From: Promethearchaeota archaeon
GTDB lineage: Archaea; Asgardarchaeota; Lokiarchaeia; Sigyniarchaeales; SOKP01
Direction: 5' to 3'
Assembly (NCBI GenBank): GCA_048937405.1
Contig: JBHLNF010000003.1
Location: forward strand, 96,001-160,000
Length of the DNA stretch: 64,000 bases
This document shows, one piece after another, positions 1 through 60,168 of this stretch (positions are counted from its first letter, which is position 1; the number at the start of each line of letters is the position of its first letter). The position numbers were made by a program, and so were the translations under genes. The notes under the pieces were generated by a model. That model saw only the letters and a list, made by a program, of their open reading frames with translations, searched no databases and was not told where the DNA came from.

Positions 1-8
1 ATTCCGGG

Positions 9-3000
9 GTGGGTGTCAATGAGGATTATGTGGATAGTGATGCCTCCAATGTGGATGGAGTTTCTGATTTAGGAAATTTAATTAATTTTGATGATATGAA
101 GGCAATAGATAGTAGTTATTCGACATTGACCGAAACATCGGTAGGTGGGAGTAATATAGAGTTTGTTGATTCTACCGAAGTAATCGGTAGTCAATCAATG
201 TCTTTAAGTGTTCCTTCTGTACAAAACGGAGATTTTATGATCACGATTGTGGCTCATTCTGATGATAATCCTACTACAACACTTACACCTCCTTTGGGAT
301 GGACATTGCAACGGGATAAGACAAATATGGGTACAACAGCGGTTTCACCTCCGGTGATTTATGTGTATTACAGAATTGCGAATAATGAACCGTCGTCTTA
401 TATCTGGAGTTGGGATACCGCAGGTGGTGTAGTGGGTGTGTGTCTGGCTTACAGAAATGTTGATACTGTTACAGCAATAGATATTGATTCTTTAAATGCC
501 CAGACGAGTTCTGGAACAGATGTCATATCACCGAGTATAGTGACCAATAATGATGGGGATTGGATAATTTCGATAGAGTGGCATGACGATGATGATGGTG
601 TAACTGGTCCTTCTGATAGCGGGTTCACTGTACGACATGATGTGCAAACCGCAACAGGAGGGAATGGATTGGGGATAGGTGTTGGTGATGAGTATCGAGC
701 TACTGTTGGTTCAACAGGAACGAGAACTTGGACCCTTTCCTCTTCTGAGGAGCGGAGCGGTATTATGCTTTCCATTACTCCAGCTGCGGGTTCAAGCGAA
801 TATCAACTGAACCAGGAGGTGCAATTTGAAGGCATTCCTGATGAGGCGGATCAGATGCCAGTACAGGAGTTATGTATTAAAACGGGTAGCATGGGAGCGG
901 AAGACCTGGCTATGGAATACTGGGACGGGGATTCCTGGGAAGTACTTGCTTCTGATTTAGTAGCCTCTTCGTGGAACAATATCAGCATCGTAGGTTATCT
1001 ATCATCAGCGACCTTTACCGTTCGGTTCAGCGATGGTACCAAAACCTCGGATGGATCAGGAGATGTGTGGAATATCGATGCGGTGTTGATTCATCTTGAG
1101 AATTCTGGTGGTGAAGGAGGAAGTGCTGAATCAGATCTTTTACGATGCACTGATTTTGATTTTTCCAGTATTCCAGATACAGCAACAATAGATGGTATTA
1201 CTGTAGAAATTGATAAGTATACGGATGTATCTGATGCTATTTCAGATTATTCCATACGCCTTAGAAATTCAGGTGGTCCAAAGGGAAGTGATAAAGCCAG
1301 CGCTTCGTATTGGTCTACCTCTGATACTGATACTTACACGGTCTATGGCAGTTCAACTGATCTGTGGGACACTTCATGGATGGTTTCTGAGATTAAAAGC
1401 GCAAATTTTGGGGTAGATATTATAGCAGAAACGGGTACCAGTGCCAGTGCGTTTATTGATCATGTACAGATCAAAATAAATTATATCGAATCTTTTTCAG
1501 GTAGGGAGTGGCAAAATCCGAGTAATGCAAATACTCAGGATGATGTTGACACTATTGTGGTATTTACTACTACTTCTGAAGATACTTCTGATATATTACG
1601 ACTTACAAATTTTGGATTTATAATTTCTGATATCGTAAATATTGTAGGTATCGAAGTGGGATTTGATCGTGAGGCAAATATTACAAATTCTATCACCGAT
1701 GGCTATCTAAAATTATTGAAAGCTGGATCTCCAGTAGGAGATGATAAAGCGACGACAACACCTTGGACGGTTGGAGACGATGATACATATGATATATTTG
1801 GCGCTTCCGATGATCTGTGGGGTACTTCGTGGACATATTCTGATATTAACGATAATGGGTTTGGAGTGGAGTTGTTTGTAAATTATACGGGTTCTTCCAA
1901 TGCTGAGGCTAGAATTGATCATATCCATATTACCGTGTATTATACGGTACCACCATCTTTACAGCAGGATAGTGGTATAATACGTCCATATGGGGATGTT
2001 TCTGCTCAGTGGAATGGATCTGATGTGGGAGATCATTTCAGTTTATTGAATGATATTGTTATAGATCCTACCATTCCAGATATCAACCTCGGATATATTT
2101 TTTCTTCCAGTAGAAGCTCTGGACCGTATATTGTTGATGAATTTACTATGGATACATTGGATATCAATAATGGTAATGTAACGCAAATTACCATAAAAGT
2201 ATACGGCAATGAAACCGATATTGATTCTAGGGTGGATGTGTATTGTGGTGGTAGTTGGTTAGGAGCTAAACAGTTGAATATGGGTTCGATCCCAGGATGG
2301 TATATTTATACTTGGAGCGGATTAAGTTTATCTCAGGCTGATCTTGGAGGGATGCAAGTGAGATTCAACTCGACCGTTCCCACGCCAGGACCAATAGAAT
2401 TTTATGAGGATTTCGATTATGTGCAATTTGGAGATATTTTAGATAGCACCTTTGATACAACCGAATTTACGATATGTGGATGGGTTAATCCAACTGCATT
2501 TTCCGATGTAGAAAGTTCCCATGGTGTGAACAACGTCTTCTTCTCAAAGGAGGGCATCCTGGAATTGGGAGTAAATGAAAGCGGTTATGTAGAGGTCTAT
2601 CTTGATCCGAATAACTTGCCTGACGCAACCGCAACCTACGGTACCTCGGGAGCGGTTCAAATAGGCCAGTGGAATTTTCTTGCGGTACGGTATACCAGAG
2701 GAAATGTTGATGTGATAATTAATGATGTTTGGTACACCTCTGCGGTGGGAGGTACTACGGAGCCGTGGAGCGGAGGGAATCAGCTGGAGAATGGTGGCAC
2801 CTTCATTATCGGTGCAGAACTGACTAATTATACCTGTTTTGCAGGGAATATAGATGATGTGAGAGTGTATAATCGCTCATTAACGTTTAACGAAGTTGAA
2901 GAAATTCGGTTAGGGAATGAACTTAGACTGGAATGCACAGTTTCACGAGAAAATGGTGCGGGTGGATGGGTACCTATTACTTCGGGAGAGCTAATCGATA

Positions 3001-9000: not shown

Positions 9001-12000
9001 ATATCAAAATAGAATTCGGTCTTACAGACTGGCATCTGTGGATAGATGGTGTTTCTAAGGATCAAGGGAATGGATATGGATATTATGGATATCGTATACC
9101 ATTTACTATTATGACTTTTGAAACAAATTCAGGGGAAACTGGCGCTGATTTTTATATTGATGCAGTAGGAACTTCTTGGTATTCAAAGAAATATAATATC
9201 GGGGACAATAAATACGCAACTCAATTATTATCTACTGATTTAATTAACAATCGCGTTGTAAAGGTACGGTATATAGCCACTGATTCAACCGATTTTGTAC
9301 TAGACATTGATCAACTCCGAGTAGATTACTATGATGATAAGTATAAAATAGAAGGAGAAATTGAATGGTCAGTAGATGATCCAATTTTATATTCAATCGA
9401 TTCGCTACGATTTAGTCAGTTTGTTGAAAACAGACTTGATAATTTTGATATATGGAATTATACATTAGGTAATTGGCAGGATATTTCAAGTGAAGACAGT
9501 CCATTTACACTTTCATCTGATTTTTATGACAGTAGCAATATTATAAAGGTTCGTTACATAGCATCTTCTGATACCACTTTTGGCTTAGATTTAGATCAGC
9601 TCAGAACTGATTACACAACTACAATACCAGTTGAAGGATTTGTATCCACATTCCATTTATTTGTTAAGGATACCGTGGGTAATAATAATACAATTGGTAT
9701 TTCACTCGCATTTGATGATGTGCCTCCTGCGATTGAAGATTTGTACATACATACCAAATATTGGAATGAATTACTGAGAATTGATATAAAGATCAAAGAT
9801 ACTTCTGATTATGATATTTCATTGATGTTAAAAAACATCATTAACAAAGCAACCTTTACTCGGTTGAAATACACCATCACAAATGTAGGACAAGATGAAT
9901 GGCAGATTTTGTTAGATACATCTCAACTGCCGAATGGCTTGTACGATATTTATCTCACCATAACAGACATAGCGGGAAATTCACTTATACATGTTATTGA
10001 AGACATATATTTGGATAACAGTCCCGTAGAATTTTTGTATCTTGAAGATAAAGTAATAATCGACGACATTTCGATGTATAGTTTTGTAATTGATGATGTA
10101 TTATATTTCAATGATAGAAAAGAAATAGCTATTTCTGCAATTGACATTACCTACGACGGTTTTAGCTGGAGTTTAATTGATCCAGCGCTGGGTATTCAAC
10201 AAGGGGTTCATAATATTACAATGTATATAACAAACGAGCTTGCTTATCACCCCGTTGTGTTATCAACCGAATTGAATTATGATACACTTTCATATGTAAT
10301 AATCGGCTATGGTACCTATCCAAATATTATATATGATACACAAGCCATCAAGGAAATCAAGCGGTTGAAAATTAATGATGTAGTTATAGAAAATAACGGG
10401 TTTTCGACCTCATTTACTGGAGGTTCATATGTATTGCATATTGATCCTCATTATACATATTTACTATCCCCATTAAATACAATTGAAGCCGAGTTCTATG
10501 AACGCATTGAAGACGGCATTTATTTTGAGTTTGATAGTATTAGTATGGAATGGGTTTTGAAATCAAGTGGAAAAGATTTCTTTAATATCTCTGAGTATCT
10601 GTCACTTTCTGAAGGAGAAGAATTTTACTTTTGGTTCGAATTGGAAGATGGAATGGGTGTTGCCAAAAATGGTTCGGTATCATATAATCCGTGGTGGAGA
10701 TACACAGGGATTAATTATCCAGTTTTTCCAGTTAACGAAACATCTCCAAAAAGCATATACTACCAAAATGGATATTGGTATGTGCTTGGAGATTATAACA
10801 ATAAAGTATTTAAGTACTATTCTAATTGGATACCTACTGGTGAGTCATATTCCATTGCTTCTGAGGATAACCTACCACAATCGATCTATTACTATGATGG
10901 ATATTGGTGGGTATTGGGTCAATTTAACAAAACTGTGTTTAAGTACAATCCAGACTGGACTTATACTAACTTAAACTACACGATAGATGAAGATGCCTGG
11001 CCAACTTCAATTTTTTATCATAACGGATATTGGTGGGTGCTCGGAAATGCTCAATCAGAAGTATTTAAATATAACTCTGATTGGACATATTCTGGAGAAT
11101 CATTTTTACTCGAAACAGAGGGAGATCTAAGTGACATCAATTTTGAGGGAGGATATTGGTATGTCTGTTGCAATGATAAAAGAAGGATATATAAGTACGC
11201 AGTTGATTGGACATATTTGGGAGAATCTTTTTCAGTAAACGCGAATCCGACCGCTATTCATTATGCAAATGACTACTGGTGGGTTCTGGGAGAACAGTCA
11301 AGAATATACAAGTATATGTGGCAGACTTCGAATGAGACAAGGGGAAATATCTTTATCACCCATACCTATAAAGGAATTTATGATAATTCAATTGAACGGA
11401 TAGGTGATGGGAACTTATTTGAATGGAACCTCGGTACTACGTCTAATGGTACAGGAGTTGTGATTTTCGGTACAGATGAGTACAAGGATAGCTTGATCCA
11501 GATCGATCCGTCATCAGTGCTTCCTGATGTGAACGATGATATGGATATCGCGAGAGTAATGATTTATGGAACTGAAAATCCTGAGTATTACATTGTGGAT
11601 ACTGCGTGGTGGAATCTTGATGAAGGTACAGGAAACATTGCTGAAGACTCTATTAATGGAGATCACAATGGTATAATTTATGGGACGACCTGGGATGATG
11701 GATTAAACGGTAAAGCACTGTATTTTGATGGTATAAACGATTATGTTTCAACAAATCTTGATATGACCTCTATTTGGACTGCTGGGGATCCGATTCACAT
11801 ATCTGTTTGGTTCAAAACTACCGCAACGAGTGGTTATATCATCGCGGGAACTCCTGAAGGAGGTCCAGATATAGCAGTTCAAATGTATAATGGACAAGTT
11901 AGAGTTCGATTGTACGGCGATACAGTAGCGGCATCTGATAATGAAGAATATAATGATAATGAATGGCATCTTGTCGATTTTGGCTGTAATGAAACTGATT

Positions 12001-15000
12001 CTTATTTCTATGTCGATGGTGTATTACAATCAACCGCACCATCTATTGGAACCTTTAATCGAGAGACTTCCCTAATGTTTGGTGCCCGTAAAACTCCTGC
12101 TCAAGACTTTTATGAGGGTTATATTGATGACATTCGTATTTATCAATACGCGCTCTCAGGTGATCAGATTCAATGGTTATATAATGAAGGTAAAGGTAGA
12201 ACATCACTATGGGATTTTGTTGGTAGATGTTATTATGATGAAGTAGAAGATAGGTGGGTGTATTACTGGAATGACGAAACTGTTGATGATATTTCTTCTA
12301 GAACGTATCATTTAAAGAGCTATGTATTTGATAAAGCTGGTAATTACCTTGATTTTAACGAACATTACAGTGGAACTTATAGTTTTGAACACGATACAAT
12401 TGGATTCATACCTAATGGATGGATAGGTAGTTCGAGCGCACCTGTATATGTAGAGGTGATTGATTCGTGGGAAGCTCATAATAAAATGCTAAGAATACAT
12501 GATGATGGAATACAAACACCATTCGACTTGATTGCAGTAACCGAGAACATATTTAGTAGTCAGCAAACAAAAGGTACTATTGAGTTTTGGTGGGGCGCTG
12601 ATAATGTCTATGATTGGTCGCAATGTGTTGTCTACAACCAAGATACTTTTAAGTCAATTCGTGTAGTACTTTATCAGAATAAGTTTCAATACCATGATGG
12701 ATCATCATATCAACCTCTAGCTGATGTTTTTAACAATACTTTATATCATGTTCGATTAGTGTTTGATTGTGATTTAGATACATATGATATTTATCTGAAT
12801 GGGAATTTAGAAAAGGATGATGCTCAATTTTTATTTAACGCGGATTCTTTAAAATCATTAGATTTTTCAATGGCAGACGAAGATGGAGGTGGTGCAGATC
12901 TTTATGTCGATGCGATAGGGTACTCATGGGATAATGATTACAAAATCGGAGATAACAATTTTGAATTCGGACGTTCAGCGGTGCAAATCTATGATTTTGT
13001 GGATATCGAACTTGCCACTGACATCATTCTTGGAAAGGTGTTTGAGTACAACAGCACCTTACCACAAAATATACAAGAAATAACAGGAATTATTCAAGAT
13101 TACTTTGGCACTGATAATCTATGGGACATTATAGTTGAGTATTATAATCCGTTAGAACATGAATGGATACCTCTGGCAGTAGATTCATCGGTAATTACCA
13201 ACGGAAAGTACACAATTACCTGGGATATCAATCAGGATGAAACATTCTTGAATTCAATGTATTATTTAGAATATGAATTCCTTCCTTATGCAATTCCTAA
13301 TAGCGGTTCTGAATTGTGGGGATCATGGGGTACCTTTTATTCAGGTGGAGATTGGCAACCCATTGTTGTAACAAAACACTCTTCAGACGTCGATATTACT
13401 GTATATAAATTTGATGGCATAAACGGATGGCAGGTGGATACCCAGCGCAGTAGTGAAAATACTATACCATCGCTAAATGGTGAAGTATTCAAATTATTTG
13501 ATATCAACAATGACGGAGTGAGTGAAATTGTCAGGGTATCTCCCGCTCAAATTGATGTGATCTATTTAGATCTGGATGTGTGGGTACTACATGAAAATGT
13601 CACCTACATGAGTGGGTATGAATATTTTGCATTTGATCTATTTTATGATGAAGACTTCGATAAAACTATACTAGTTGTCATGCAAGAAAATATTGCTCAA
13701 GGAATCTTATCACTGTGGAAATATCAGTTTGATGCTCAATTTAACCTTGATTTGGTAAGACAGGTTTACTGTCCTTTAAATTTTTATCCATATACTATAA
13801 AAATTGTAAACGATTTTTCAACAAACGATAGAAACGCGATATTAGTAGGTGGGTTAATGGAAGGAGGCGCCTATTATTCTCAGCTTCTTGAATATGACCA
13901 GAATTTGGATGTACAAAAAGTAATTACAGAGGAAGTTCTGGGAAAAATTAGCGCTATTGAATATGAGCAAATTAACGGAATACATACGATTTTCCTTGGT
14001 ATGGATCGACTTGCAATCGGAAAAATGGATGCTGTAGTAGTACTGAAGAAAAAAGAATTTTCGGATGAATGGAATGAATTAGAATTAGGGGAGTTTGAAG
14101 AGGACATCAAGTTTAAGATTTTGGATCTTCTTTTTATCAATGATAATAATAATATGAAATTGATAACAGCATCAAACACGGGGGTGTTTCAAACATCGAT
14201 CATATATGTAGAAGACAAATCTACAATTAAAAGCCCTATTGTCGTGAAGAAGTTAATGCTACTTAAAGATGATTTGAACTCAGAAAGTCATCCTTTTCAC
14301 ACAATCGAAATTACTGATCGAGTGTATTCTATAGAAAGGGTATATTATAAGTTAAACAACAGATGGGTGGAATTGGGAGAATCAAAGTATGTTTATTCAA
14401 ATTTCAAAATCAAACTCGATTTAAGCGCTGTCTCGTGGAATGATTTACAGTCAGTTATAATTGTGTATAGTTTTTGCTCTTTTAAGGTTATAGAAGAAAA
14501 CGTTATAGATCCATCTTTTAAAATATTTGATGGACAGGCTGATATCAATGAACTATCCGCATCTGCAACATTTTACAAAGATTTACAATTCCCCTTGTTA
14601 TGGATCAATCCAGGGACAAGAACAGATCAATTTTATCTTCCAAACGCATTGACATTACATCGGGAACCAGTTATTTCTGGATACGGTAGGAAGTCGGCAT
14701 ATCCTATTGATATGCAACAGGGATGGGATGGAGAGTATAGTGCAGCGTACACCTCTATGACAGAACTTGAAAATAGTTTGATTTTTTACAATAATACTTA
14801 TGATTCGGGAATTCTTGCTCAAGAGTTAACGGGTAAAGATGATAATCCCGAGGTGGGACTTAACGGGGATAAGAAAAAGGTATTTGATGATCAGTTTGAA
14901 GGGAATTATATAGACGGGGTGTGGATTAGCAACCCAGCAATCAGTGAGAATTACGATTTCAGTGAGATGTATTATGATCAAATACATGATGAAACACTGG

Positions 15001-36000: not shown

Positions 36001-39000
36001 TATGGACATTTGGTACGACAGATGTATTTGGCAAGGTGTCGTTTGATCTATCGTTTGATAATGAATATTTATCTGACTTTTCTACAATATTTGGAACGGT
36101 CTCGGGAATAAAATCATTAGACGATATTTCACTTTATATAAGAGCATTTACAACAGAGTTCAGATGGCAAGATTTCATCATTCATTCACCCGAGCAGTAT
36201 ATCTGTTCACAAAACGGAATCATCTTTAATTCTAGTAGCAATATTTTACGTGAATATGATCTAATGCAACTCAAGTTCCAAGACAGTACATATGCAGAAG
36301 GGGTTATTGAGTTGCACAAAAAGGATATTGCATTAGGGTGTTCTGATCGTATTTCCTATGATCTTCCCTATACTGATGAGTTTCAAAGTGCCCAACTTGA
36401 AAATCTTCGCTTATTTGTATACGTTACAGAGGCAAATGTAATTGGAGGTAACATCGGCACGACAGTTGAATCATTAGATGGGCTTCATGAGGTACTTGAG
36501 TTGGAACCAACTCCTGTAAATGTACTCGCACAAAATTACAGCTATTATGCTTTACTTCAGATACTCGATCCTGCAGGAAACAATGTAAAGCAAGCCTACT
36601 TGCCAATACAACCAAGCGGTGATGGTGGATATATAGAAATTGCAAATTGGACTATGGAAGAAATTCTAAACACGGCGGGACCTGGTGTTTCAACGATACA
36701 AATTCAAGTTCAAGAAACAGAGTATTATAAGGCTTCTCCTGTAGTACGAGTCCCCCTAGAAATTAGACCCCCCAACTGGCTTCGTTTTGGGGAGAAAAAT
36801 ATGCAGATCGATCTGATTGATCCATTTATCGCCTCTTGGGGTTCTGCATTTGATGGAAGTGGGTTGATGCCATTTGAGAGCAATTATCCGCATCTGATTG
36901 GCACACTGTGGATTGATCCACACTTTGAAAACGGAGAAGAACTTTCTATAGAAGATTATATTGAGATAGGATTGACCTGCACCTCCTTTAATGAATCTGG
37001 AGGGATAAGCGGTGTCACTGATTTACGAGAACCCATCATGTTTCGTCCAGGTAATTATGAAGGATTCTTAACGTTTGATGTGGGATTAGGTCCAGAAGAT
37101 GCATTTTTGATGGGAACCGAGTGCATGCTGAATTTAACATTCGATATTGATTATATTGAACAAGAGGTATATAACGAAAGTAGAGATATCAATATCTATC
37201 TGCTTGATCTCCGAATGGTCAATAATCCATCAGCGAATAACCCAAATATTATCTGGTCACTATATGAAGATAAATTCAAAGATATCGCATTTCCAGTAAA
37301 AAATGAGTTATTAAGTATATCAACAGAAACTGGAATACTTTTATTGGGTGGAATTTCTGGTACAGAAGCATACGGAGTTGAAGAGTACTTCCTCTATGAT
37401 CCAGATCAGGTTACCTATGCAACGGATCCTGAAAATCCACAATTATCATTACTTGGGTTAGATAACGTAGAACCTCTTGCTGTTATAGGCACAAATGGTA
37501 CCGAAACAAATTATATTTTTGTAAAAAACGTTGATTGGCAAGAAGGAACGACTATGACCGAGATCGAATTTCTGGGAAATGATGTTCCAAATAACGATTC
37601 AGAATTCAAGGTGATCTATCAGTATAACTTTGATTTCGGTTCGAACTATTTCGGAAACGTAACACTTGGAGCTTCAAACAATGTTAGTAAGAGTTATATA
37701 GAATTTGATTTAACTGGAGGATTTTTACCAAGTAGTGAAGACAGTAGATCTTCCATGTTTGTAAGGTATTTTGACAACTTTGTTGGTAATAATATTGATA
37801 AAAATTTCAATTTAACCTATACTATTGAAAATGCAGATCTATCGGATTTTGTCATTTATAATGAAGAGGAATTGAACGCTTCATTTACAGGAGTCATAAA
37901 GAAGATTGACAACGGAGCGTTACAAATTGAACTTACTGATATTCCTGCTAATGGTCAAAAATTCAACGTGTCATATGGCATCCGATCTCAGTACGAATTA
38001 AGCTACGGCTTCCAGAAATTTAATAAGTCTTACAGTGATTCGGTTCGGTTGATTCACAATGATGAAGAGCACCAGGATTCAATATTAGATACTCAGGAAA
38101 TTCCATTGATCACTACCAAATTGAATGAACCTTCCTTATATGTGTCAATGGACCCCTCGGATGAAGAAACTATTCTAGAATTATATAACCTACTTATAGC
38201 CTATAATCCTGAATTAAACTTTACTATAGTACTTGATCCGATAGTTGTAAATCAGATAGAAGCATTTAACAATGATTTTAATACACTTAGTGTCGAGTTT
38301 TATTATGTAAAACATGATATGGGAGTCTATTATTCAGATTATATTGAAATTCCGTTGAATTATAGTGAATTTGTATTAGATCTTGAAGAAGATGGTAGTT
38401 ATCGGATTAATTATAATAAAGATCTGTTTGGACTATATTCTGATTTTGGAGTTTCGTCAATGGATATATATATTTCAATTTCACAGGTGAGCGAGGGATG
38501 TAATTTCATTCCATATGTAATCATTGAAGATTTTGATTATCTCAGTGATGATCATTTTATAGAAATGTATGATAGAATACCAAGAGACAGTAATAATAAT
38601 ATAGATGTAAAGGCAGTCATTGGAACTCCTCATTATTTCCAAATATTTACCGAGCCTTTACGAACAAGTACCTTGTATAATGTATCATCTCCTTTCGATC
38701 TTTTAGAAAACTCTATAGTAACTGTCGGATTGACTGATCTACCACATTCTAGCTTAGTCTCACTGAATAATTATGAGTTTTCTTATTTAGGATCATCAAC
38801 ACCAATTGTTGTTAATGATGATGATTTCAACATGATTACTAACCTTGGATTATTTACTAATACTTATAATATTGAAGACTCTATTGTTCAGGATGGATTT
38901 GTCGATCTTTATTATGGTTCAGGAACAGAAGTGGACGGGTCAAAAGAGTATGATATTAAGATGAACATGTGGCCGTTGAACGATGTTATTGACTATACAT

Positions 39001-42000
39001 CAAATGTTTCTAATCAAATTATTGAATCATGGGAAAACTCATTGAACTTTACTTCCCAATTCTTAACTACTGATGAAATCACAGTATCAGGAACGGTTCT
39101 ATATCATCAGATATTTAACTTGGTTTCGGATGATACAGTAATCGGGGAAAATGAAATAAATGCCCTATTTGACGGTTATGATGTACCACATGCGATGCTT
39201 GGATTACGCCTTCCAGATGATATACAAATTGCATATGTCGGAACGGTTGGCAAACCATATGATTATTACCTATCTGTACAAGGTTTCCCTATCGGAAATC
39301 ATAAAACGAGCCACTGTATAAACTTGACAACTGGAGTTATCGACTCATTTGCATACAGTGAGAGTGTGATGATAGAAGATGATCACTATTCTATTGAATA
39401 TTTAGATAATGGAAGTAAGTATATCTTAATCTATGTAAGTAATTCTTCATTATATGCTGAAAATGATGAAATAATTGTAGATTATTGGGCATATCATACA
39501 TTTACAGAAGGAATCGATTACGAGATTCATGAAGATCCTGATGATCCCTATATGTCCGCGATCACTTGGAACCTTGAATATAATAATGTAAATGACTTTA
39601 AGATGCACCCTGATTTATCTACACAAACATCCTATACCATTGAATTCTCTGCTTTAGAATGGAAAGATGCAGGTGATAATTACGTATTACAACATAGTGA
39701 TGAATTTATTTTTCAACCATTAACCAAGACAAATATCTCTCTGTTATATGAAAAAGGAGATACCGAAAAAATGTTTAACATCCTCTATTATGTGCCCTTA
39801 GAGCGGTTCCCAGCACCCGACTTATTCACTTCTGTTGCTGTGAAGATATGGGATGGGAATGATATAAATTCATTGCAACTTTATTCTAATTTTAGAGCTG
39901 AATATATCCTTTCAGATACAGATTGCAACTGGATGTACTATCTAAATTTTACTGAAGTACAAAAAGATATTTCGATTGAACATCAAGGATTTGAAATATA
40001 CCCAGATACATCGGTATTAATAGAGGTGCAATTCAATTCTACTGTCATAAAATATCCATTGACATATACCCCATTTAACTACGATTATATAGAATCAACT
40101 CACGAAGTATACAACATTAACATCACAGTGGGAGAACTCGGCACCTATACCTCAAATGTGGATTCATTCTTTGATAAATATGTTATTCAGATCAAAGATA
40201 ACTATATCTACTTAAATGATACTGAAATAGATCCTCATACTAAGATCACCGTTAAGTATCGCCATAAATTACAGCCAGGGTTGCTTGATCGTAAGCATTT
40301 AGTAACTGTAACATATCCGTGGACAAATACTTTTACCACAATCGCAAGTGATATCACTTCTGTGGAAGACCTAGACACCGCCACATCATATAGAGAGAAA
40401 TACAGGAAATTATCGGGAAGCTCAATTATCGCACCCTTTGATTACTCCTTATCACTAGATGATATTTATACCCTTTATTTGAGTTATCGGTTGAATCAAC
40501 GGGACATCATTGAAGAAACATTTACATTTGAACCAGCAAAAGTGTGTAAAGATGGTACATATAATTATACCTATATGGATCACGGTATTGATAAGTATAT
40601 GGATGATGTCGTCATAGATGGGCAGCATTCAATCACTATCTATTATTATGATGAATGGGGACGTATCCAAACAGTAGAGGAAGAATGCTATACTGTAGAT
40701 TCGGTCAATAATATAATAACAATGCTACCAAGCGGTAGTAAGAATCCAATTCTCCAGAATGCTGTCCCTGAATTTTACGTATCATATCTTCCCGAAGGAA
40801 ATGATAAGAAATTCGAGAATTACGAATTTACCTACGACCCAAATAGAGAATTAAAAGATACCATTGAGGTGAGTAATTGGGAAGTCATCAATGGAAAAAG
40901 ATTAGATACAATTCCTATCTTTGAAGCACCGTATTTCATGGATGAGAGTGTAAGTACTCATGAAAATATAGTATGTTATGCTACACAATTAATGTCGTAT
41001 ATCAATACAACAACAAAATTACGATTTAATTTAAATGATGAACTTTTTGGATATGATACCGATCTTTTGGCAGATATACAGTCTGGACAGATTACCAACC
41101 TGCACATACGGACAGGTATTAGTAATTACGAGAGTATCGAGAGTCTTACTGTTCGACTCTTTAATACTACTCAACAAATTGAATCTGATCAAGTTTTCAC
41201 CATTGAAGAGCTTCTTAAGAGTAATTTCGTCATTAATATAGTATTACCATCCTACCACCATAATTTACAATACATTGAATTTGATGCGACTTTTACGGAA
41301 CGAGGTGAGTATTCAAGTGATAATGATAAAGGTATTACTCGTGTTGAATATATTGAATGGGATGAGCAATTAACTACTGTGGGTTCAAACGGATATAAGG
41401 TGATGGAATATGTACTTGGGTATGATCTTATAGAAAATACAAATATCTATCTTTACAATGATGTGTTACAATACCTCAAACTTCCTGATGGAATTTCTTT
41501 TGAATACACTCTCAAAGTGGATGCCTTTGAAAACATAATGTATGTCTTAGAAATTCCCGATGTGTATGTTAACCCAGATGATTCTAGTGAGAATCGCACC
41601 TTTGCAGATGGGGACATGCTTATTTTACGTTATAGCTCTCCCCCTAAAAAAGAAATTGGAATTGCAGTGGGTACGATGTACTTTGAAAAGGAGCAGTATG
41701 AGATGTCTATCCCAATCGCTGAAGTAATGTTGATTAATGCTTCGAATACCTTTAGTTATGATGAATTTATAAGTCCCTACTATTACAACATTCCTCTAGA
41801 AGTAACGCCGTTTGATACCGAATTTTCCAATTCTTTTAAGGCGGTTGCAATTGAGTTGGATATCTCAACATTAGCGGCATATAATGTGAGCAATGCTATC
41901 GAGTTTTCGAATATCATATTTTCTGTACCCGATCCTTCATATGAATTAACTATTGATCAAGTGGTTATTACTAGGAAAGATCATGGAAGATCAGACCATG

Positions 42001-45000
42001 AATATGTTGAACAGAACATCTGGAGATATACAGAGCTAGAAATGTTTGAGTCAGACGTAGATCCCAGTGATGATGTGTACAATCCAACATTTACTGAAAC
42101 ACCGATATTTTACAATGATGGCGGTGATAAATGGTTAAAGTATCTGGCGTTGTATGACGGTGCCGCTACATATTATGCGGGATTACCAGAAGGACAAGAT
42201 CAAGATCAATATCAATTACACTGGTCTCAACAATACAGTAATTTCACCTGGAATCCATCATTTGATAAATTTAAAGAGATATTTGGCATGCAGTATGAAT
42301 TACCTATGAGTATTGAACCAAATAGCTCTTTATATCTTGCCTACTGTACAAACACATCGTGGATGGAACCAATATATTTGGATTATAGTAATATAGACCT
42401 GAATTCTATTGCAGTAGTGTATGAGGGCGATACCTTTTCATTAGAGAATCGGTATTATTATTCTGAATTAGACAGAAATCTTACGGAACGACTGTACTAT
42501 GATTATGAAGTAGATCAGTTTTACAGCGATTCATTTACTGTATACAATACAGTGTCAACATATACCCATGAGTTCGATCTTGGCAATTTTACCCTTGAAA
42601 ATGATTTCATTAATGTGAGTGTGTATAGTATAAAAGGAATATATGCAAATTTCACTGATGTTACAATAGAAAATGATACAATCAACTATGAGGTGTACTT
42701 TGATAAGGCTGCAAACAATATTACCATTATAGACAAAATATCTGGAGATGGGGTCTTAAACCAGTTTGATCTAATTACCGTCATATTAAACTTTTCATAT
42801 GGACCTATTTCTACAAGCTCAAGCATCGAACTTTCGCACATGTTTAACAATTCTTATTTATCAGATCCTACGGCATCATTTTATGATTTACTTTCAATAT
42901 CATTTGAATATGTTGATGATCTTGAATTCGTGTTATTTAATGAGGATTACAGAACTATTACTACCTCAAATACTTTGTTTACTTCGATTGATTTTACAAG
43001 AAGTAGTGAGTTGGGTATAGATAAAAAACTCAATGGGTATGATACAAGCGTGTTCCTGAACTTTAAGATATTTTATGATCCATATAATGTGATTTATGAA
43101 GCGGATTTAGACGCTGATGGGAACATAGATTATCTACAAGAAATAGATATAAACAAAGATGGAATCACGGATATTAGAAAATTCGGAATCCAAGATGGGG
43201 AGTATCCTGAAGACATCATATGGCATACTATCATTCAAAATTATAAGACGCATGAATCATATGTTGATAAGCAAAAACAATCGAAAGCAACGAAATGGTT
43301 CGATCTAAATGATGATAGTTATTCTGAAATAGACTGGGGAGATCCAGGTATCTGGGCAATGATTTCACTAGCGATAGCTGGAATAGCCTTGTCTGGAGGG
43401 GCAACAGCTGCACTTGTTATCCCACCGATTGCAGGGGAGATCATGGTTTCAAGAGTAGATTACTGGGCAAAGAAATCAATAACACACGAAATGACTCAGC
43501 ACTATGATGTAAATACTGTATATCAAAGTGTAATAGTAGATGAAAATAAAGATGGGTATGCAGATACGGAAGTTACTTACGAACATATTGATACAGTAGT
43601 AAATTACGAATCAATAGACATTGAAACAACAATCATTGCTGCTAAACCTTATGGTTGGACAACGTATCTCTTGGATTATGTAGAGAGAAGTTTTAAGGAA
43701 TTTTTTGTAGGAGAAATAGAAGATAATGTGTTTAATGAAGAATTAACAGAAGAAATATTGAGTGATAAATCACTTGCAGTGCAGAAGTACGGAAGCACAG
43801 GAGAAACCTTGTTTAATACATTTGGAAAGGTTTCAAAAAACACAACTGTACTATACCGAGAAGAACGTATACGAGAAACAATTACTATTACGGATTGGGA
43901 GCAAGGAAAAATTAAAGAAACAAGGATTTACACAAACGATTTTGATGACCACATTACAAATTACGAAACATTTACGATAAAAGATCTCTACTCAGGGAAC
44001 ACACAGGTGGTAGAACTTGAGACTCACAGAATTCCAGATGAAGTGTCTATTGAAAAGAAGCATATTGATGATATTACTTGGGAAAATGATAAAATACCAG
44101 AGCAGTTCGATACAAAGATCACGATATTAGAAGACGGAACAACAGAAAGGAAAAACATCAATGAGAAACAACTCACGATCATTATTCCAAACAGGTTCAG
44201 TCTGTATAACGATATCTACAAGGGTAAATATAATAAGGATTTAGTTAAAAATGACACATTTACAATAACTGGAGTGGTTATTAAACCTATCGATGGGCAG
44301 GTGTATTACACTTCTGATATAGATCTGTATAAGGCTGGAATGGCCCAAACACAAGGATTCTATCTATATTACGATAGCGATGAAAACGGTTTTTATGAAA
44401 CCGTGTATGTACTCGATGAAGATCCGACGAATGATGGATCATATATAGTAATAGCAATCGGTTATAATTATGACGGAAGCCACGAATTTTCACCATATAA
44501 TCAGAAAACCGTTCGTACCTATGTAGAAAAAGATGATGAATTGGCAAGAAAGCCTTCCTTCAAAATAGGGTTCAGAAGGTACTCTTTCTCAAGGATTATG
44601 AGAGATGACAATCTATTTTTGAGTGATAATGATGGATTAGAAGCAAAAGATATGATATTTGAAATTTACCGATTGACATCATATAAAGGTTCAAATCCAG
44701 AGTTCTTTTATGAAGTCAAACAACGAGAGTACAGTCGAACAACAAACATTTTCGATAAATCATACTGGTCTGATGTAGCTGAACAGGTATTTATGTCAAC
44801 TGCAGCTGGCACTATCTCGGTGGTTGTTGGGGCAGCGGTGTTCGGATGGATAACGGGTGCTACATTAGGTTTTGGCGTTGCAGCTGGTAAGGTGGCACAA
44901 GAATTAGCTTCAATGCTTACCTACTTTGCGGTATATTCGATAATGAGTAAATATTTCATGGATGTCAAAGAATGGAAGAGCAGGCATCAAGAACGTGCCG

Positions 45001-48000
45001 TTACATTCTATCTTGAGGGATCTGAAATCAATAAACCGAAGTATCTAAATGACCGTACGAAATACGATGATATAGACGAGGATAGTCAAGCGGCTGCGGT
45101 AAAAGGTCATCCAGGCGGATACTATACATTAGTACGGGGTGGTCAGTTAGGATCAGAGTATCTTGCAGAAGCTGTAGTATCACCGAAAAATTCACGAAGA
45201 ACTAATGAAGGGCTAATTAATTACTATACCTATGGAGCTTGGACAAATGATCCATTTGTCTATGTTGGATTGAACTACGATGAGCAAAACTTAGATTATC
45301 TGCTACTTACTAGTGAATTATACTCCTACAATGATGAAGAGTATTACTCATATCGTGTTGGCCCAGGATTTGTAAGCATTCAGGATGGAAAAGAATATAA
45401 TGAGTATAAATACAATACTCTCGGATATTTAGAAAAAGCAATTGCAGAAGAAACAAATGGAGCGTTAAATGCAATTCTTCCTACGTGTGTAGGCGGAAGA
45501 CCAGAATATCTATTCATTGATAAAAATTCTGATTTGTATCAACTTGTGCTTCCGCAATCTCATTTATATCAATCCCTTGTTGTGAATCCTAATGTCTATG
45601 ATAATAATAATTTTGCGAACGGCATTCTTGATGTGGATATTGACCCGTCTGGCATAAAAGGAATAAATCCTTATGAAATGACTGTTATCGAACAACTCTT
45701 ATATAGTGCGAAGATACCGTTACATAACTTTAATTATGAAATAGTTAGTACCGTATTATATATACGGGATAAGAATGGTAATCCTAAAGCTGATGTAGAA
45801 CTAACCCAAGAAGTTGATTATTTGATTGATGAAGGTTCTCTTTATCTTTTAGCTCCCATTTACGAACTTCTTGCGCGAGATTCCAAGTTTGAAGAGTATA
45901 TGAATGCAAGAGCATCTGGATATTACTTCTCAATAAGTATTGAATTCAAACGGATAATACCAGATGATTCAGATGAAGATCACAAGATAGCATTGCAACA
46001 GGCAACATCCTATATTATCATGGAGTATTTCAACCAGTATGAATTTGCAACAACCACAGCTCGAATGACTGCAGAACTTGGATATACAGTACGTCTCACT
46101 GAAGTATCAACCGCCTTATCAGTAGTTGCAATGTATCTGAGTAAAGGATTAACCAAAGGTTTAGAAGAAAAATTCCTTGCAAAATCAACACTAACGGCCT
46201 CACAAACAGTGTCTAAGGCACTAACAGTAAAGAATCTATTACTTACCATGTTAAAAGAATCATTATCAGAAGTAATAGAAGAAACGATCTGGGATGCATA
46301 TATTGAACAATGGGTTAAAAATTACATTGAAGAAACGGGTGGAACAGCACAAATGGAATTCTGGTTATCTTCTATTTTAACCTCATTGAGGGAAACAGCG
46401 TTCGGTGCTGGTGATATATACAGGGGAATCCGTCAGGAGGTCCAATTACAGACCCAAATAAAGGCGTTTTCTCAACTTGATCCAACTCTACAGAATTTCA
46501 TGAGCGAGTTACGTCTACAAAATCCTGGTATCAGTGATAAACAATTGCGTATACAATATAGAGCTGATTTTGCTCAACTCCTCGCTGAAGAACAGCAAAA
46601 ACAAACCCAAAATAACAATCAAAAAGCACAAAATAAGAGAAGTTATAAAGAAGTCTTACGTAAAATTCCAACAGCACTGTTAAAAGGTATAATGGGTGCG
46701 ATGTTTATTTTCAACCTTGATGCATATGTAAAAACTTTCATCGGAGTTCTTGGCACTTCGGTGACATTAACCCCGATAAAAAATTACATGACTAAACAGC
46801 ATCAAAAACGAATAAATCCAGGATTATCTCTTGATGAGAAGCATCCAGTTAATGATATTGATCTAAATAAGCCAGCATCTCTTATCTTCGACCTAGAAGG
46901 TCGTCAAAAATTAATGACAGATAGAGATCTTGTCCTTCTTTCCTATTCGGCAAAGTTGCTTGATCCAAAAGCAATGGTCGATAGACAATTCGATAAAAGT
47001 TATAATACACTACAACTGGAATATAAACCAACTGCACAAACAGTCACTAGTAATACATACCAATTAGAAAAAGCAAGACAAGGATTACTAATTCAAAAGA
47101 AATTATATGATACAGGTAAAACTGGAAGAATCGAAGAAACGACTCTAGATGTTGAAGAGGCTTATCGTGTATCACAACAAGTTGTTGATGTAGAAGTTAT
47201 AATTGATGATGTTCAAATGAATGTATTTACGCCACAATTATACTCAAGAGAAGCAATATATTTATATTTATGGAGTCAAACAAGAGATCCTACTATAGTC
47301 TCTCTTCCTAGAAGGGCCAGTATTGAAGCCTTAAAACAAAATATTATCCGTAAGTTTAATCTTAATTTAGCTACCAGGACAGATTCACTCGATTCAATAA
47401 CCGTCTCCAATGATTTTGTAGTAGTTGATTTTGACATTAATCGAGTATATGATATAGATAATTTTGCGACTGTGGGGGAAATAATTGATGCCCATCCAAA
47501 TTTCAGAATTATGAGGACTATAAATCTTGAACCAAATACCCCTATTACAACTGTACGCGATTTTAGAGAAATTGAATATTATTCTTCAACACAAAGAAGT
47601 GGTACATATTTAAGATTTGGAGAAATTAATCCAGATGATAACACACTTTCCCCTATAGAATCATTACCAGAAACCCAAGCGGGAAGAAGAACTGCAGACG
47701 TACTTGAACATAGAGGTGGAGGAAATGAATTTATAAGACGCTTAATTAGAAAGATCACTGGCGGTATAAGAGGAATTTTTAAAGGTACTGAAACAACCCA
47801 GAGAGTTCTTAATCAACCCGAACTACCTCTATTCGTAACTGAATTACAACGGGCGTCTGATGATATCCTGTATTTTAACCCTAATACCCCAAATACTGAT
47901 CGTCAAGTTACTATTCGACAACAACTCGATTTTGTAAGAGATTTCATTAGAGATGAACTTGTTATAGTATTACGAGAAAGATTAGAGCTACTTGGAGTTG

Positions 48001-51000
48001 CATCTGAGGTACACTCGAATGATATGATTGAAAAAGTCACAGAAATTATACTTCAGATATATGATGAATTTTACATACATCAATACGAAGCACATCAACA
48101 ACTTCTTGGAAGTGATCAGAGAAATCTTAACCTACTTGATAAAGAAGTACGGTTAAATTGGGAACGTGTAATACAGAATAACTTACTAGCTTATATAATT
48201 GACTACTTCCCAGCAGAAAATGGTGTTTTAATCAGGAATTTTAATTCAAGAGATCAAAATTTGCACAGGAATATTTTTGTATCGGTTTTGGATAAATTAG
48301 AAGATATTAATGATAGGAAGGAAATCATTGATCGACGACGTTTATTTTGTATGTCAGTTATAGAGAGTATGCTGATTTCAAACGATATTGAAAGAATAAA
48401 TAACGATCCAGCTGGAGCAGAAATAACTCGGTTCCTTGGACCTACGGCTAGAGGGAGGAATAGAGCGTTTTCTGAGCTTTTTTTCGCTTTATTTGGAAAA
48501 TTCAGTTCAGATACCGAGATCAACACAGGTGCTTTACAGGAAACTCATGATTTCATGTATTTGTTACCAAAAATTATTCTAGGGTTGTTTTTCGAACATG
48601 TGGGAGGAAATATACAAGATATTAACTATGAATATTCCTATAACAAATTTAGTTATGCTGATGCAACCTCTATTTTCAACTTAGTTAGGGAATTATTTAA
48701 CGGAGGTAGTCTTCTTCATGCTGAAGGAGATATACGAGCGGAAGATGTGTTTTCAGATCATATGTTTACATTGATTAATTCACACTTTAAACATCAGATT
48801 ATTAATATAATCTCTAAGAATCTTCAAGATGGAGGTCATGCTAGAACTCGAATGGATCTCATTGAAAGTGACTTATGGAAGGCTCTTAATTCAATTAAAA
48901 ATCTCGCTGGGACAGATAAATTAGAAATGGATAAAATATTAGCAAAAATAGTAATTGATATGCAGGCACTTAGAGGAATGGACAGTACAGGGAGAGAGAA
49001 TACTGAATTCAGTACAGTAGAATCCCTTTTAAGACACAGATTTAATGATGTTTCTGCTAAATCTATAATCAGATCAACAGAGTGGAGAAATCAAATTAAT
49101 ACTAATAGTAAGTCAGATATTTCTGAGATATATTCACAAAGATGGATACATTCACGAATATTAGGAATCGCTAGTAATATTATATATGAGGGTGGGATAT
49201 TTCATGCCGACCGTTATGCTGCTATATATGATCTGCTAACCAGCACTCGAGAAATTATAAGTCAAACTGGCACTCTTAATACTAATCCATGGCGAGAAAG
49301 ACGTGGAGGTACCTTGTATAGAGTTAGACCATTGGGAACCTGGACACCAGGCACAATTTATCAAAATAATCAAATTGAAGTACTTATTGAAATATCACCA
49401 ACCAACAAATTCGAAATAACTATCAACTTCCTTGAAGATGGTGGGAATGTTGGGAAAAATCTTGAACGTGGGGATACTTTCCTACAACAATCTGGGTATT
49501 GGATTTCATCTTGTCTTAATTTCGTTGAAAATATATTGGTTACTCCAACTAGTATTGCTAATTATCTTAGATTATTAAGAAATGATTTTGAAGATCGTTT
49601 AGGGACATCATATCTTCATTGGGATGAAACTGGGGAATATACAACAGGATTAAATCTGGTTGCTGGGTGGAATAGTGGAGTGTTAATTGAGGGTAATTTG
49701 AATATAAACAATATACCTAATAGTATAGATACAAGTAATGCTGAATTTGATCCCATTAGTGGTAATCTTATTGGATCTTACATTCCAATGTCCCGAGAAT
49801 TAGATGACAATACTATCCAATATGGCTTATTGCGTGTAGAACAGGATAGTGATGGAGTCTACTGGCATATTCATCCCTCAAATACTCTTGTGGGTACAGA
49901 TTGGGCTCCAATTTTGATAGAGAGAGAAGATGGATATATTCCGTTTTTTGTTCAGGTTGAATTAAATGTAAGAGAAAGAAAAGTCACTTATTTAGGATTT
50001 AGTAACAATCGATTAGATAGTTCTGGTTTCTCTTTTGATAGCGATTGGTTCATGTCAACAGATCCAGAAATACAAGCGGCATTAGAAGAAGCTATGTCAA
50101 GTGGAGGGTTTACAGAATATACATTATATTTTTCATGGCATGGAAATGAAATAACTGGATGGTCGATACATACGAATATAGAGAATATGTATTTAGCTTA
50201 TGGTCATTATAGAGACTCTTATAATAGATTTAAAAATGTAAGAAGAAGTAGGCAAGATCCCTATCAGGATCCCGGATTATTTGAGCTTAAAAGATTAATT
50301 GAGTATGAAAGATATCTACGATATGGCGAAATAGCTCGAGTAGGTGTACAAGCGGAAATAAATAAGGATGGAACTATATATTTTACTGATTCAACACTCC
50401 AAAAGGAAAACACGAAGTTGATATTTAAAATGGCAGAAGATCAGTTAATCACAGCCACAACAACAGAGATTTCCGAAATAAGGAACTATTTCTCATTGAT
50501 AAATGCTTATTATTTTGGAGCTTCTGATCCACCAATAAATATTATACATGCAGATGACGTTGACATTTATTTAAGCGCACTTGAACAATCAGCAAAAAAG
50601 ATCCTTGGTGATACAAAAACAGCGGAATTGATGAATTCCATATTTTTCAATGAAATGAGGGACGGTCAATTACGATTTAACAACAAACAGATGCTGAAGA
50701 ATTGGGCAAAGGGTATGTTGCTGTTATTACAAAACTATTATAATGATCCAAATAGAGAAGTAATTCTACGTCTTGAAGGATTACTTAACCACTTTGAATT
50801 GAATAGTTTAACATTCACGGATAGTAATGAACTCTTTCAAGAGTCAGATAAAAACACTTTTCAAAAATTACAAACATTGCTTTGGACAATATTTGGACCA
50901 TATACTTACTTAAAGATGCTAACAGGTGGAATAACATTTAAAGATGGCAAAACACGATATTGGAATTTACCATTTTATGATTTTCTGCTTGCGATTAATC

Positions 51001-52364: not shown

Positions 52365-53222
52365 ATGCTATTTGTAATTTTCAACATATTATCAAGAGAA
52401 ATTTACTTCAAATCATATTTTGAAAGTCATTACATAGAAGATAATATATCAAAAATTATTAAGATGTTTAACAATCGAGTATATTTAAAAAATGAGGAAA
52501 AATACCAATTAGCTTTTAAAATTAGGGAAAGTGTTGCTTTTGGAGGAATAAGAGCCTATAATGGTGGTAGCTACAACGGTCGTGATATTATTCCATGCAA
52601 ACAAATAAATCTACAGGAAATATTAAATTTTATACATGAGTTATCAGAAATTATTACTGAAGAAGAAATTAATCTCTTAACTACAAATCAATTTAAATTG
52701 ACAAAAGAAATAATTTTACAAAGATTAAATATTAAAAATATTCATAATAAATCTAAAATATTAATTGTTGGAGGGGGAGGTGCAGGGGTAAGTTCCATAA
52801 TGTTTATGAATTACGGTCTTACATTAACAAATAATCTTGGAACAATAATTTATCATGTAACAACAAATATAAATGTGAAGAATGAAAAACTCATGTTTTT
52901 TTTTACTCCATATAGATCTGATTTATATCATCATCAAATTAGTCTTTTTCCTGCATTTTCAAGTATTATTTATGTTGAAGATAGTACAAGAAAAGAAGTT
53001 TTTAATGAATATAATTACATTTTAAAAAAAATAAAAGAAGAAAAGAAAAGGAAAAAAGAAAAACGATTTTTAATTATTGCAAATAAACAAGATTTACCAG
53101 GAGCAATGGAGCCAGAGAAAATCGAAGAAATTACAGGGATAACAACAGTCGGCTTTTCTGCCATTGATCCTGATGCTCCTAAACATTTAGAAAAAATAAT
53201 TTCAGATTTTTTGAAAAAATAG
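52365..53222 (+). CDS. Arf/Rag-like small GTPase-fold protein with an N-terminal extension (possibly longin-like); degenerate G1/G3 (pseudo-GTPase)
   Basis: KILIVGGGGAGVSSI (no Lys), no DxxG, YVEDST, intact ANKQD (G4) and FSAI (G5); 60 bp after the giant gene. Confidence 0.8.
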   Translation: MLFVIFNILSREIYFKSYFESHYIEDNISKIIKMFNNRVYLKNEEKYQLAFKIRESVAFGGIRAYNGGSYNGRDIIPCKQINLQEILNFIHELSEIITEEEINLLTTNQFKLTKEIILQRLNIKNIHNKSKILIVGGGGAGVSSIMFMNYGLTLTNNLGTIIYHVTTNINVKNEKLMFFFTPYRSDLYHHQISLFPAFSSIIYVEDSTRKEVFNEYNYILKKIKEEKKRKKEKRFLIIANKQDLPGAMEPEKIEEITGITTVGFSAIDPDAPKHLEKIISDFLKK

Positions 53223-56013: not shown

Positions 56014-56031
56014 AGGAGGAATGAAAATATA

Positions 56032-57867: not shown

Positions 57868-57937
57868 CTTTAACTTTTTAAATATAAATTTAGCAAATAA
57901 AAAATAAAAAAAAAACAGAAAATAGAGGTTTTATACA

Positions 57938-60054: not shown

Positions 60055-60139
60055 TAATAAGAATCTTAAATTTGTAATTCAGAACTCAGAAAATTTTAAA
60101 GACTAATATTAAAGATTGAATTAAATATACCTAAAATCT

Positions 60140-60168
60140 GACATGTCAAATCACGACATATTTAAATA
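60140..60168 (+). promoter_or_regulatory. Putative PadR operator/promoter of the ABC permease
   Basis: GACATGTCAAATCACGACATATTTAAATA: perfect ATGTC-N7-GACAT (60143-60159) adjacent to a TTTAAATA box. Confidence 0.7.

Follow-up and report, generated by a model that had tools for sequence, protein, structure and literature searches.

A 20,619-codon gene for an anchored surface protein of a Loki-type Asgard archaeon, with an exchanged, sequon-free C-terminal tail that may be delivered to neighboring cells

Asgard archaea are the closest known archaeal relatives of eukaryotes. Halomucin of Haloquadratum walsbyi, another archaeal giant (~9,200 amino acids, aa), is regarded as a secreted mucin-like coat. 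Here we describe a gene of 20,619 codons from a Loki-type Asgard archaeon (Promethearchaeota; source genome G000, 4.47 Mb and 29% GC). Most of the gene lies within a 64,000-nt stretch, which we call the window (C13:96001-160000, where C13 is a 328,806-bp contig of G000). Compared by description only, halomucin is alike in being a giant, acidic, glycosylated archaeal surface protein, but the protein described here is anchored by a polytopic N-terminal domain, its stalk is conserved and non-repetitive, and its tail is exchangeable. We propose, tentatively and with a probability of roughly 0.45, that it is a polymorphic-toxin-like protein that would serve the contact-dependent presentation and transfer of its tail. 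Below, residues are numbered along the full 20,619-residue product, and nucleotide positions are those of the window unless C13 or an L label is given.

Polymorphic toxins are large surface proteins with a conserved body and a C-terminal region that varies sharply between close relatives, and we found both features here. As in CdiA, Rhs, and WapA (PMC3482391), a very large surface protein has a conserved body, a sharp junction, an exchanged C-terminus, and a variable gene directly behind it. Unlike them, the giant has no homology to FHA, RHS, TPS, VENN, or catalogued toxin or immunity sequences, and it is anchored by an N-terminal polytopic membrane domain, whereas they use type 5, 6, or 7 (T5/T6/T7) secretion. 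It is also archaeal, 2-6 times larger, and glycosylated (as predicted from N-x-S/T sequons), with a tail that is predicted to be glycan-free and with half of its leucine-rich repeat (LRR) neighbors convergent. Among polymorphic toxins, there are Imm-LRR immunity proteins as well as papain-like (including C39-like) domains that act as C-terminal toxins or releasing domains (Zhang et al. 2012, PMC3482391). Pfam searches over the whole giant found no trafficking or repeat modules (TPS/FHA, RHS, WXG, or PVC) and no pre-toxin motif. In particular, the TPS domain, FHA repeats, VENN motif, and CdiB partner of CdiA-type two-partner secretion were not found with Pfam, and the host is a single-membrane archaeon.

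Giant Asgard genes are already known in print. According to the accessible parts of three surveys, archaeal proteins of more than 10,000 aa are few and mostly Asgard (West-Roberts et al. 2023, bioRxiv 10.1101/2023.11.21.568195), Asgard proteins of more than 3,000 aa have been tabulated (PMC8813620), and Laminin_G_3 is a hallmark of archaeal huge proteins, with 12 from Lokiarchaeota counted, lengths not listed (PMC11573180). The giant belongs to the class defined in the accessible part of the last survey (archaeal, >5,000 aa, Laminin_G_3). In those same parts, PMC11573180 and West-Roberts et al. 2023 give counts, unlike the architecture, anchor, distal module, tail exchange, and sequon avoidance that we report, and the accessible literature that we searched held no description of this family's architecture. 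What is new here is an exceptionally long member, together with a clean junction seen between two close relatives and sequon counts across the family. The giants of Omnitrophota (Archaeovorins; West-Roberts et al. 2023) are also non-repetitive, multi-domain, membrane-anchored proteins with carbohydrate-binding modules and a proposed action on neighboring cells. However, they contain many enzyme domains (glycosyl transferases and hydrolases, peptidases, and a SecA-like helicase) plus beta-helix tubes, whereas over 90% of our giant has no Pfam match and the modeled part is a chain of beta-sandwiches. As for the cells themselves, Lokiarchaeum as seen by cryo-electron tomography lacks an S-layer, and many surface proteins protrude from its membrane (PMC9834061). 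Nor was an S-layer protein detected by proteomics of P. syntrophicum (PMC11284389), and Loki-type Asgard cells depend on intimate contact with partner organisms (PMC9834061). One concrete candidate for mediating cell-to-cell recognition, conflict, or protein transfer in the lineage is an anchored stalk that carries a conserved, putatively membrane-active module and whose glycan-free end can be exchanged.

The stop-free stretch in the window is part of one real, complete gene for a cell-surface protein. One frame is open from base 3 of the window to a stop at 52304 (17,433 codons, with the 5' edge open). An earlier note, made from the window alone, had argued that the gene extends beyond the window, and when we extended the sequence upstream along the contig we recovered another 9.6 kb of it (3,186 codons), for a total of 20,619. 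From stop to stop, the open reading frame (ORF) is C13:86445-148304 on the + strand (61,860 nt). Because this frame sits well inside its contig, the gene is not truncated by a contig end. The preceding in-frame stop ends at C13:86444; the first start codon is a GTG at C13:86445, an ATG follows 12 nt (four codons) later, and a 930-bp AT-rich spacer precedes the gene start. The predicted product is about 2.36 MDa. Given the ORF's own base composition, stops are expected at 7.7% of codons and the probability of no stop is ~1e-717; the other two frames have 100-280 stops per 2,000 codons. Along the entire ORF, GC1>GC2>GC3 and the codon signature is uniform. The gene is 33-39% GC, as compared to 29% for the genome, and makes up 1.4% of the genome, in which the second-largest open frame is 3,512 aa.

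3..52304, + strand: window part of the giant gene, codons 3,187-20,619 plus the stop; the gene starts at C13:86445 (= L001:10443).

Comparisons to relatives also show that this is a single gene under selection. At least 14 full-length, collinear orthologs are present in genomes of Promethearchaeota (Loki-type Asgard archaea), with the N-terminal anchor in the same ORFs. Two are from the same genus: a giant of 12,745 aa in G003, which is complete within a 199-kb contig, and one of at least 11,803 aa in G014. These align to the G000 protein in blocks of 30-48% identity, with the order kept and with an unbroken alignment of 4,300 aa at aa 14,559-18,791. The earlier note's claim of a single gene is borne out by this end-to-end collinearity with orthologs of 11-15k aa. 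Its claim of purifying selection was also correct: in a close pair of orthologs (G224:C135 and G212:C3), the bodies are 84-86% identical with dN/dS of 0.11-0.12, which is similar to the flanking genes (0.12-0.16). A 1,000-aa piece of the core matches 25 of 399 genomes of the phylum, and 23 of these are among the 133 genomes of the same family. The open frames of the core-matching homologs span 11,241-14,833 aa, and two or three copies occur in several of the genomes. Homologs in the databases, including sequences from Loki's Castle and Baja-Loki, are all partial (3.8-6.9k aa). So far, the family has been found only in Loki-type Asgard archaea. That the DNA is archaeal, as the note had concluded, is confirmed by the titles of the related records (all are Promethearchaeota or Promethearchaeia archaeon), and genes for Arf/Ras-like GTPases adjoin the giant. 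The G000 protein is the longest of this 11-15k-aa family and exceeds its relatives by 6,000-8,000 aa.

Another subfamily is distantly related (24-28% identity to the core) and also has giant open frames, of 9,130-14,552 aa (G232:C7, G232:C8, G212:C41, G252:C47, and G182:C163), so some genomes carry three giants of the superfamily. Some orthologs have in-frame stops (one TAG in a core match, and one TGA and three TAA inside a match to the N-terminal anchor), which could reflect decay or sequencing errors.

G277:C1:34909-38286 and G277:C6:5552-6808: orthologs with in-frame stops.

The protein begins with a lysine-rich head (aa 1-445, 19% K+R), which is followed by hydrophobic helices with K/R-rich loops at aa 450-677. 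A topology with about seven helices, N-in and C-out, fits these helices and loops. We predict that the head is cytoplasmic, that the roughly seven helices anchor the N-terminus in the membrane of the producing cell, and that the next ~17,400 aa are exported. This accounts for the earlier note's observation that no signal peptide is visible: the true N-terminus lies outside the window and consists of the cytoplasmic head and the membrane helices. The putative ectodomain has 5.6% K+R and 15.7% D+E, for a net charge of about -1,760, and it contains 205 sequons versus 183 expected.

Most of this ectodomain does not resemble known families. The only Pfam matches in the giant are to Laminin_G_3/Laminin_G_2, DUF2341, and a sialidase-type carbohydrate-binding module (CBM), and Laminin_G_3 is the only frequent one. 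Searching the whole protein against PDB sequences gave nothing beyond ConA-like and CBM chains. We found no useful match for the N-terminal 700 aa in the Protein atlas, and no match for the N-terminal 3,186 aa or the C-terminal 5,000 aa in NCBIfam or PHROGs. Iterated self-profiles identified several repeat families: tandem units of 154 aa, short repeats of ~45 aa, a 140-aa module that occurs six times, a 340-aa module that occurs four times, and five ConA-like modules. These repeats are restricted to aa ~970-7,500 and 11,000-14,580, which are the segments that G000 has beyond its orthologs. Since the repeats sit in the surplus segments (the membrane-proximal two thirds), the extra 6,000-8,000 aa arose by lineage-specific amplification of modules. 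The remaining parts (aa 7,500-8,400, 8,900-11,000, and 14,580-20,619) are non-repetitive: the self-profiles found no internal repeat there, which rules out an ordinary tandem-repeat adhesin.

1125..2024, + strand: second block of the ~154-aa tandem repeat (aa 3,561-3,860), in a G/S/T-rich duplicated region (aa ~970-4,150) that is mostly upstream of the window.
2415..2900, + strand: ConA-like lectin module (Laminin_G_3; aa 3,991-4,152), from Pfam and a self-profile.
11592..12209, + strand: ConA-like lectin module (aa 7,050-7,255), from a self-profile family in common with the Pfam-matched copies.
25776..26003, + strand: DUF2341 domain (aa 11,778-11,853), from Pfam.
31020..31700, + strand: ConA-like lectin module (Laminin_G_3/Laminin_G_2; aa 13,526-13,752), which matches the S-layer domain protein 4qvs and is directly preceded by the sialidase-like CBM.
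33474..34175, + strand: ConA-like/CBM module (aa 14,344-14,577), which matches a module of the arabinanase 5hon.
34119..44744, + strand: distal stalk (aa 14,559-18,100), conserved, non-repetitive, and sequon-rich, within a single unbroken ortholog alignment at ~40% identity.
35319..38618, + strand: modeled segment of the stalk (aa 14,959-16,058), a predicted chain of Ig/macroglobulin-like beta-sandwiches.

The model of aa 14,959-16,058 was built with AlphaFold2 (AF2) from 27 orthologs (predicted local distance difference test, or pLDDT, of 81.6). It most closely resembles the MG arrays of macroglobulin/complement and the Big/MG surface proteins of archaea. Judging from the number of domains, the stalk may be a fraction of a micrometer long.

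Beyond the stalk is a module of about 700 aa with A/G/S/T-rich hydrophobic helices (H1, H3, and H2, in that order). It is conserved across the family, and a K/R-rich sequence follows H2. From its sequence, this is a candidate for a membrane-insertion or translocation module. We discarded another transmembrane-like segment, at aa 17,640, as a conserved feature: it is part of an insertion that is specific to G000.

44781..46814, + strand: conserved hydrophobic module (aa 18,113-18,790), with H1 at aa 18,113-18,170, H3 at aa ~18,555-18,578, and H2 at aa ~18,745-18,780.
46842..52301, + strand: polymorphic, sequon-free C-terminal tail (aa ~18,800-20,619), unlike the tails of 15 orthologs.

Conservation ends at a sharp junction that is about 110 residues past H2. 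All 15 of the orthologs can be aligned to the G000 protein up to aa ~18,650-18,850, and beyond that the similarity is gone. What remains of the orthologs past the junction (720-1,840 residues) is weakly alike or unlike among themselves. The last 1,000 aa of the G000 protein have no match in 40 relatives, and the last 700 aa have 5 weak matches among 1.84 billion representative proteins. The clearest case is the close pair G224:C135 and G212:C3, in which identity is ~85% up to the junction and has fallen to ~25% some 25 residues further on, with dS saturated in the tail only. Because of this abrupt collapse and the saturated dS, we conclude that the tail was replaced, instead of drifting quickly. 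The DNA from the stop codon to the next common flanking genes also differs between these two genomes.

The tails also avoid sequons. Just before the hydrophobic module, sequons are in excess, with 58 versus 36 expected at aa 14,500-18,100, or 14-19 per 1,000 aa versus 9-11 expected at aa 14,001-18,000. In contrast, the last 2,683 aa of the G000 protein have none versus about 22 expected, and the tail alone has none versus 16.7 expected (P = 6e-8). The 15 ortholog tails together have 0 sequons versus 126 expected (P ~ 1e-55), as compared to 388 versus 296 expected in their bodies. In the orthologs, sequons continue between H1 and H3, and past H3 all but one are gone. A cytoplasmic location fails to explain this, because the cytoplasmic head has 5 sequons (4.5 expected) and the soluble ORFs of G000 have 0.93 of the expected number; each of the 41 ORFs in which 6 or more are expected contains some. 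These counts suggest that the tail must meet the glycosylation machinery and yet is selected to stay glycan-free. Because the signature is clean and quantitative and is present in every tail, it could guide searches of other genomes for cargo regions of this kind.

44250..44258, + strand: last N-x-S/T sequon of the protein (aa 17,936), with none in the remaining 2,683 residues.

One stretch of unique sequence in the ectodomain (aa 8,001-10,000, window 14446-20445) is also sequon-poor, with 6 versus about 20 expected, unlike the rest of the stalk. Separately, a distant copy of the hydrophobic module (24% identity over 666 aa) is found in a 2,767-aa ORF on another contig of G000 (C28). This paralog has 24 sequons versus 16 expected in its body and 0 versus 10.5 expected in its module and tail. 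A co-directional ORF of 220 aa with no Pfam match begins 52 nt past its stop.

C28:270451-278751 (= L081:3451-11751), - strand: 2,767-aa paralog with the distant module copy and a 764-aa tail.

The last ~260 aa of the G000 tail are probably a papain-like (clan CA, C39-like) cysteine peptidase; taken together, several weak and concordant signals make us reasonably confident of the fold. The domain contains GQQD-x6-Cys, an invariant His, and Asp-x-Asp 20 residues further on, in common with 3 short homologs (4 sequences in all), which are the only detectable relatives among the 1.84 billion representative proteins. In the numbering of the 300-aa C-terminal piece, the candidate catalytic residues are Cys61, His247, and Asp267/269, and GQQD-x6-C is kept in the homolog P0009. 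Another homolog, P0011, is the only one to match DUF3335, a C39-like family (E = 7.6e-4). By a protein-atlas (language-model) comparison, the nearest clusters are Peptidase_C39_2 and staphopain (score 0.86). A profile of the four sequences has cathepsin B as its best match in PDB (E = 0.3), and in this alignment the His and Asp coincide with its catalytic His and Asn. An AF2 model of the C-terminal 300 aa has a pLDDT of 50, which is low because the alignment contains only 4 sequences. In this model, Cys61 is at the start of a helix (60-76), and the top structural comparisons are to calpain, interpain, GtgE, xylellain, C39-like peptidases, staphopain, and SpeB (VIA Z at most 5.7); a Foldseek search with the model gave no match at E ≤ 0.001. 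The domain has the layout expected of clan CA: a Cys at the N-terminus of a helix in the low-confidence model, a candidate oxyanion Gln before it, a His on a beta-strand, and an Asp on the next strand. It resembles known clan CA peptidases (C39-like, calpain, staphopain, GtgE, and cathepsin B) in having Gln-x(10)-Cys at a helix start, His on a strand, and Asp 20 residues on, but it gives no significant match to them.

51537..52301, + strand: probable papain-like (clan CA, C39-like) cysteine peptidase domain (aa ~20,365-20,619).
51582-51584, 52140-52142, and 52200-52208, + strand: candidate catalytic residues Cys20380, His20566, and Asp20586/20588.

Every locus that we inspected has a variable gene no more than 100 nt from the giant's stop codon. 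In 10 of 14 orthologous loci (L046-L049, L053, L054, and L056-L059), the first ORF, less than 100 nt past the stop, encodes an LRR protein of 286-559 aa. As judged roughly from the ~58 LRR_8 matches per genome, about 1% of genes encode LRR proteins. Five of these LRR genes are co-directional with the giant and five are convergent, and four of the proteins (L046, L048, L049, and L059) have an N-terminal EFKINEF..LKLEDGKTNIYV-like motif. At least 4 other orthologous loci have small co-directional ORFs behind the giant, and some of these are tandemly duplicated. In G000, the slot held by LRR or small genes in the orthologous loci is occupied by P0012, which has an Arf-like small GTPase domain, and a second GTPase gene (P0013) follows. 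Neither the LRR nor the Arf/Ras-like neighbors have signal peptides. We rejected a conserved partnership between the giant and GTPases: none of the flanking genes in G000, upstream or downstream, are found beside any of 16 orthologous loci.

52365..53222, + strand: P0012 (285 aa), with 120 N-terminal residues of no known family and an Arf-like small GTPase domain, 60 nt past the giant's stop.
53414..54289, + strand: P0013 (291 aa), winged-helix plus Ras-like GTPase domain, the second downstream neighbor.

If the giant is a polymorphic-toxin-like protein, then the stalk would present the distal module and the tail to a neighboring cell, the hydrophobic module would insert into the neighbor's membrane, and the glycan-free tail would cross as cargo, as in bacterial polymorphic-toxin and contact-dependent systems. 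In G000, the papain-like peptidase at the end of the tail might be the effector or a peptidase that releases it. The variable gene behind the giant's stop (LRR in most relatives, a GTPase-domain protein in G000) might be a partner or an immunity gene.

Several observations weigh against this proposal. No known toxin, pre-toxin, or immunity families were found in 16 tails (Pfam, NCBIfam, and PHROG) or in the neighboring genes; Pfam also found nothing relevant in 14 ortholog tails or in the C28 paralog and its neighbors. H2 is poorly hydrophobic in G000. Sequon avoidance indicates that the tail has to be free of glycans, not that it crosses a membrane. The signals for the peptidase are each below threshold (pLDDT of 50, profile E of 0.3, and structural Z below 8). 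Half of the LRR neighbors are convergent, and the G000 giant has no LRR neighbor. Finally, because the orthologous loci have a common ancestry, the 14-15 loci do not count as independent cases.

A more specific version of the proposal is that the cargo in G000 is a papain-like protease that is injected via the hydrophobic module and aimed at the small GTPases of rival Asgard cells, with P0012 and P0013 as decoys or immunity proteins. There is a precedent in the bacterial effector GtgE, which targets Rab GTPases. We consider this version very improbable. If it were true, the giant would be an inter-cellular weapon against the eukaryote-like GTPase machinery of rival Asgard cells.

The main rival to delivery is that the giant is purely an adhesin or recognition fiber: the stalk would bind to cells (syntrophic partners or kin) or to polymers, and the tip would diversify like the tips of adhesins or the tail fibers of phages, with nothing delivered. 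We consider this unlikely, although it deserves to be taken seriously. Adhesins typically contain ConA-like lectin modules, CBM-like modules, and chains of beta-sandwiches, the variable part of the giant is at the end opposite its N-terminal anchor, no toxin family was found in the tails, and some of the protruding surface proteins of Lokiarchaeum bridge its protrusions (PMC9834061). However, an adhesin would leave three features unexplained: the conserved hydrophobic helical module before the tail, the 0 of 126 expected tail sequons beside a sequon-rich ectodomain, and the cassette-like exchange of the tail together with the downstream DNA.

Alternatively, the giant might be a structural or protective matrix, like halomucin: an acidic glycoprotein coat that would serve hydration, ion binding, or spacing and would need no particular partner. 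The strongly negative charge, the 205 sequons of the ectodomain, and the G/S/T-rich expanded region would suit a coat, as would the reports of Asgard cells without an S-layer (PMC9834061, PMC11284389). But the family has a patchy distribution (about 1 in 6 genomes of the taxonomic family), the stalk is non-repetitive and conserved, and a coat would need neither an exchangeable tail nor a hydrophobic module. This makes a coat improbable.

It is a bit less probable still that the giant is a loop that is anchored at both ends, with H1, H3, and H2 as transmembrane helices in the producer's own membrane and a cytoplasmic tail that signals via the LRR or GTPase neighbors, as a receptor would. The K/R-rich sequence after H2 fits the positive-inside rule. 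In a composition test of whether the tail is cytoplasmic or exported, values were intermediate, with a shift towards the cytoplasmic type. The lack of signal peptides in the LRR and Arf/Ras-like neighbors also fits. But as discussed above, cytoplasmic sequence in G000 carries sequons at about the expected rate, and 0 versus 126 expected sequons argues for a tail that is exposed to the glycosylation machinery outside the cell, and against a cytoplasmic one. Also, the neighbors in G000 are not conserved beside the giant gene.

The last alternative concerns the assembly. The stretch is present in five DNA runs from two studies. In two of the runs, Logan contigs of 53.7 kb, which are from another assembler, are identical to the giant gene over ~52 kb, from aa ~3,480 to past the stop. 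The Logan contigs fragment only at aa ~800-3,500, in a region that contains a 1,268-nt duplication (90.5% identity, with a longest exact match of 111 nt). In one low-depth run (X5), a contig joins L060 position 9101 back to 4848 (4,254 nt back), which hints at variation in repeat copy number or at an alternative path in a recently duplicated region. Because the contigs break and the alternative joint occurs there, and the remainder matches exactly, any doubt about the assembly is confined to the copy number of the 90%-identical internal duplication at aa ~970-4,150. As to the mis-assembly that the earlier note had asked to be checked, the identical 53.7-kb independent contigs largely exclude it, with the exception of this copy number. 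That the gene is an artifact (a misassembly, a chimera of paralogs, or a dead gene) is thus extremely improbable: other than the contig breaks at the 1.27-kb duplication and the one back-joint, we have 20,619 codons without a stop and with a uniform codon signature, another assembler's contig with 0 differences over ~52 kb, collinearity over the whole length with 14 or more orthologs, dN/dS of 0.11 in relatives, and no other stalk paralog in G000 that could form a chimera.

L060:4848-9101 (= C13:90848-95101, aa ~1,470-2,890): alternative joint in run X5.

Downstream of the two GTPase genes, window 54712-59131 encodes ATP-citrate lyase beta-like (433 aa) and alpha-like (611 aa) proteins and then an isocitrate/isopropylmalate dehydrogenase (397 aa). 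This looks like a compact cluster for citrate cleavage and the tricarboxylic acid (TCA) cycle. The rest of the window (59509-64000) encodes a PadR-family regulator (181 aa) and then an FtsX/MacB-type permease (>1,222 aa) that continues past the window's end.

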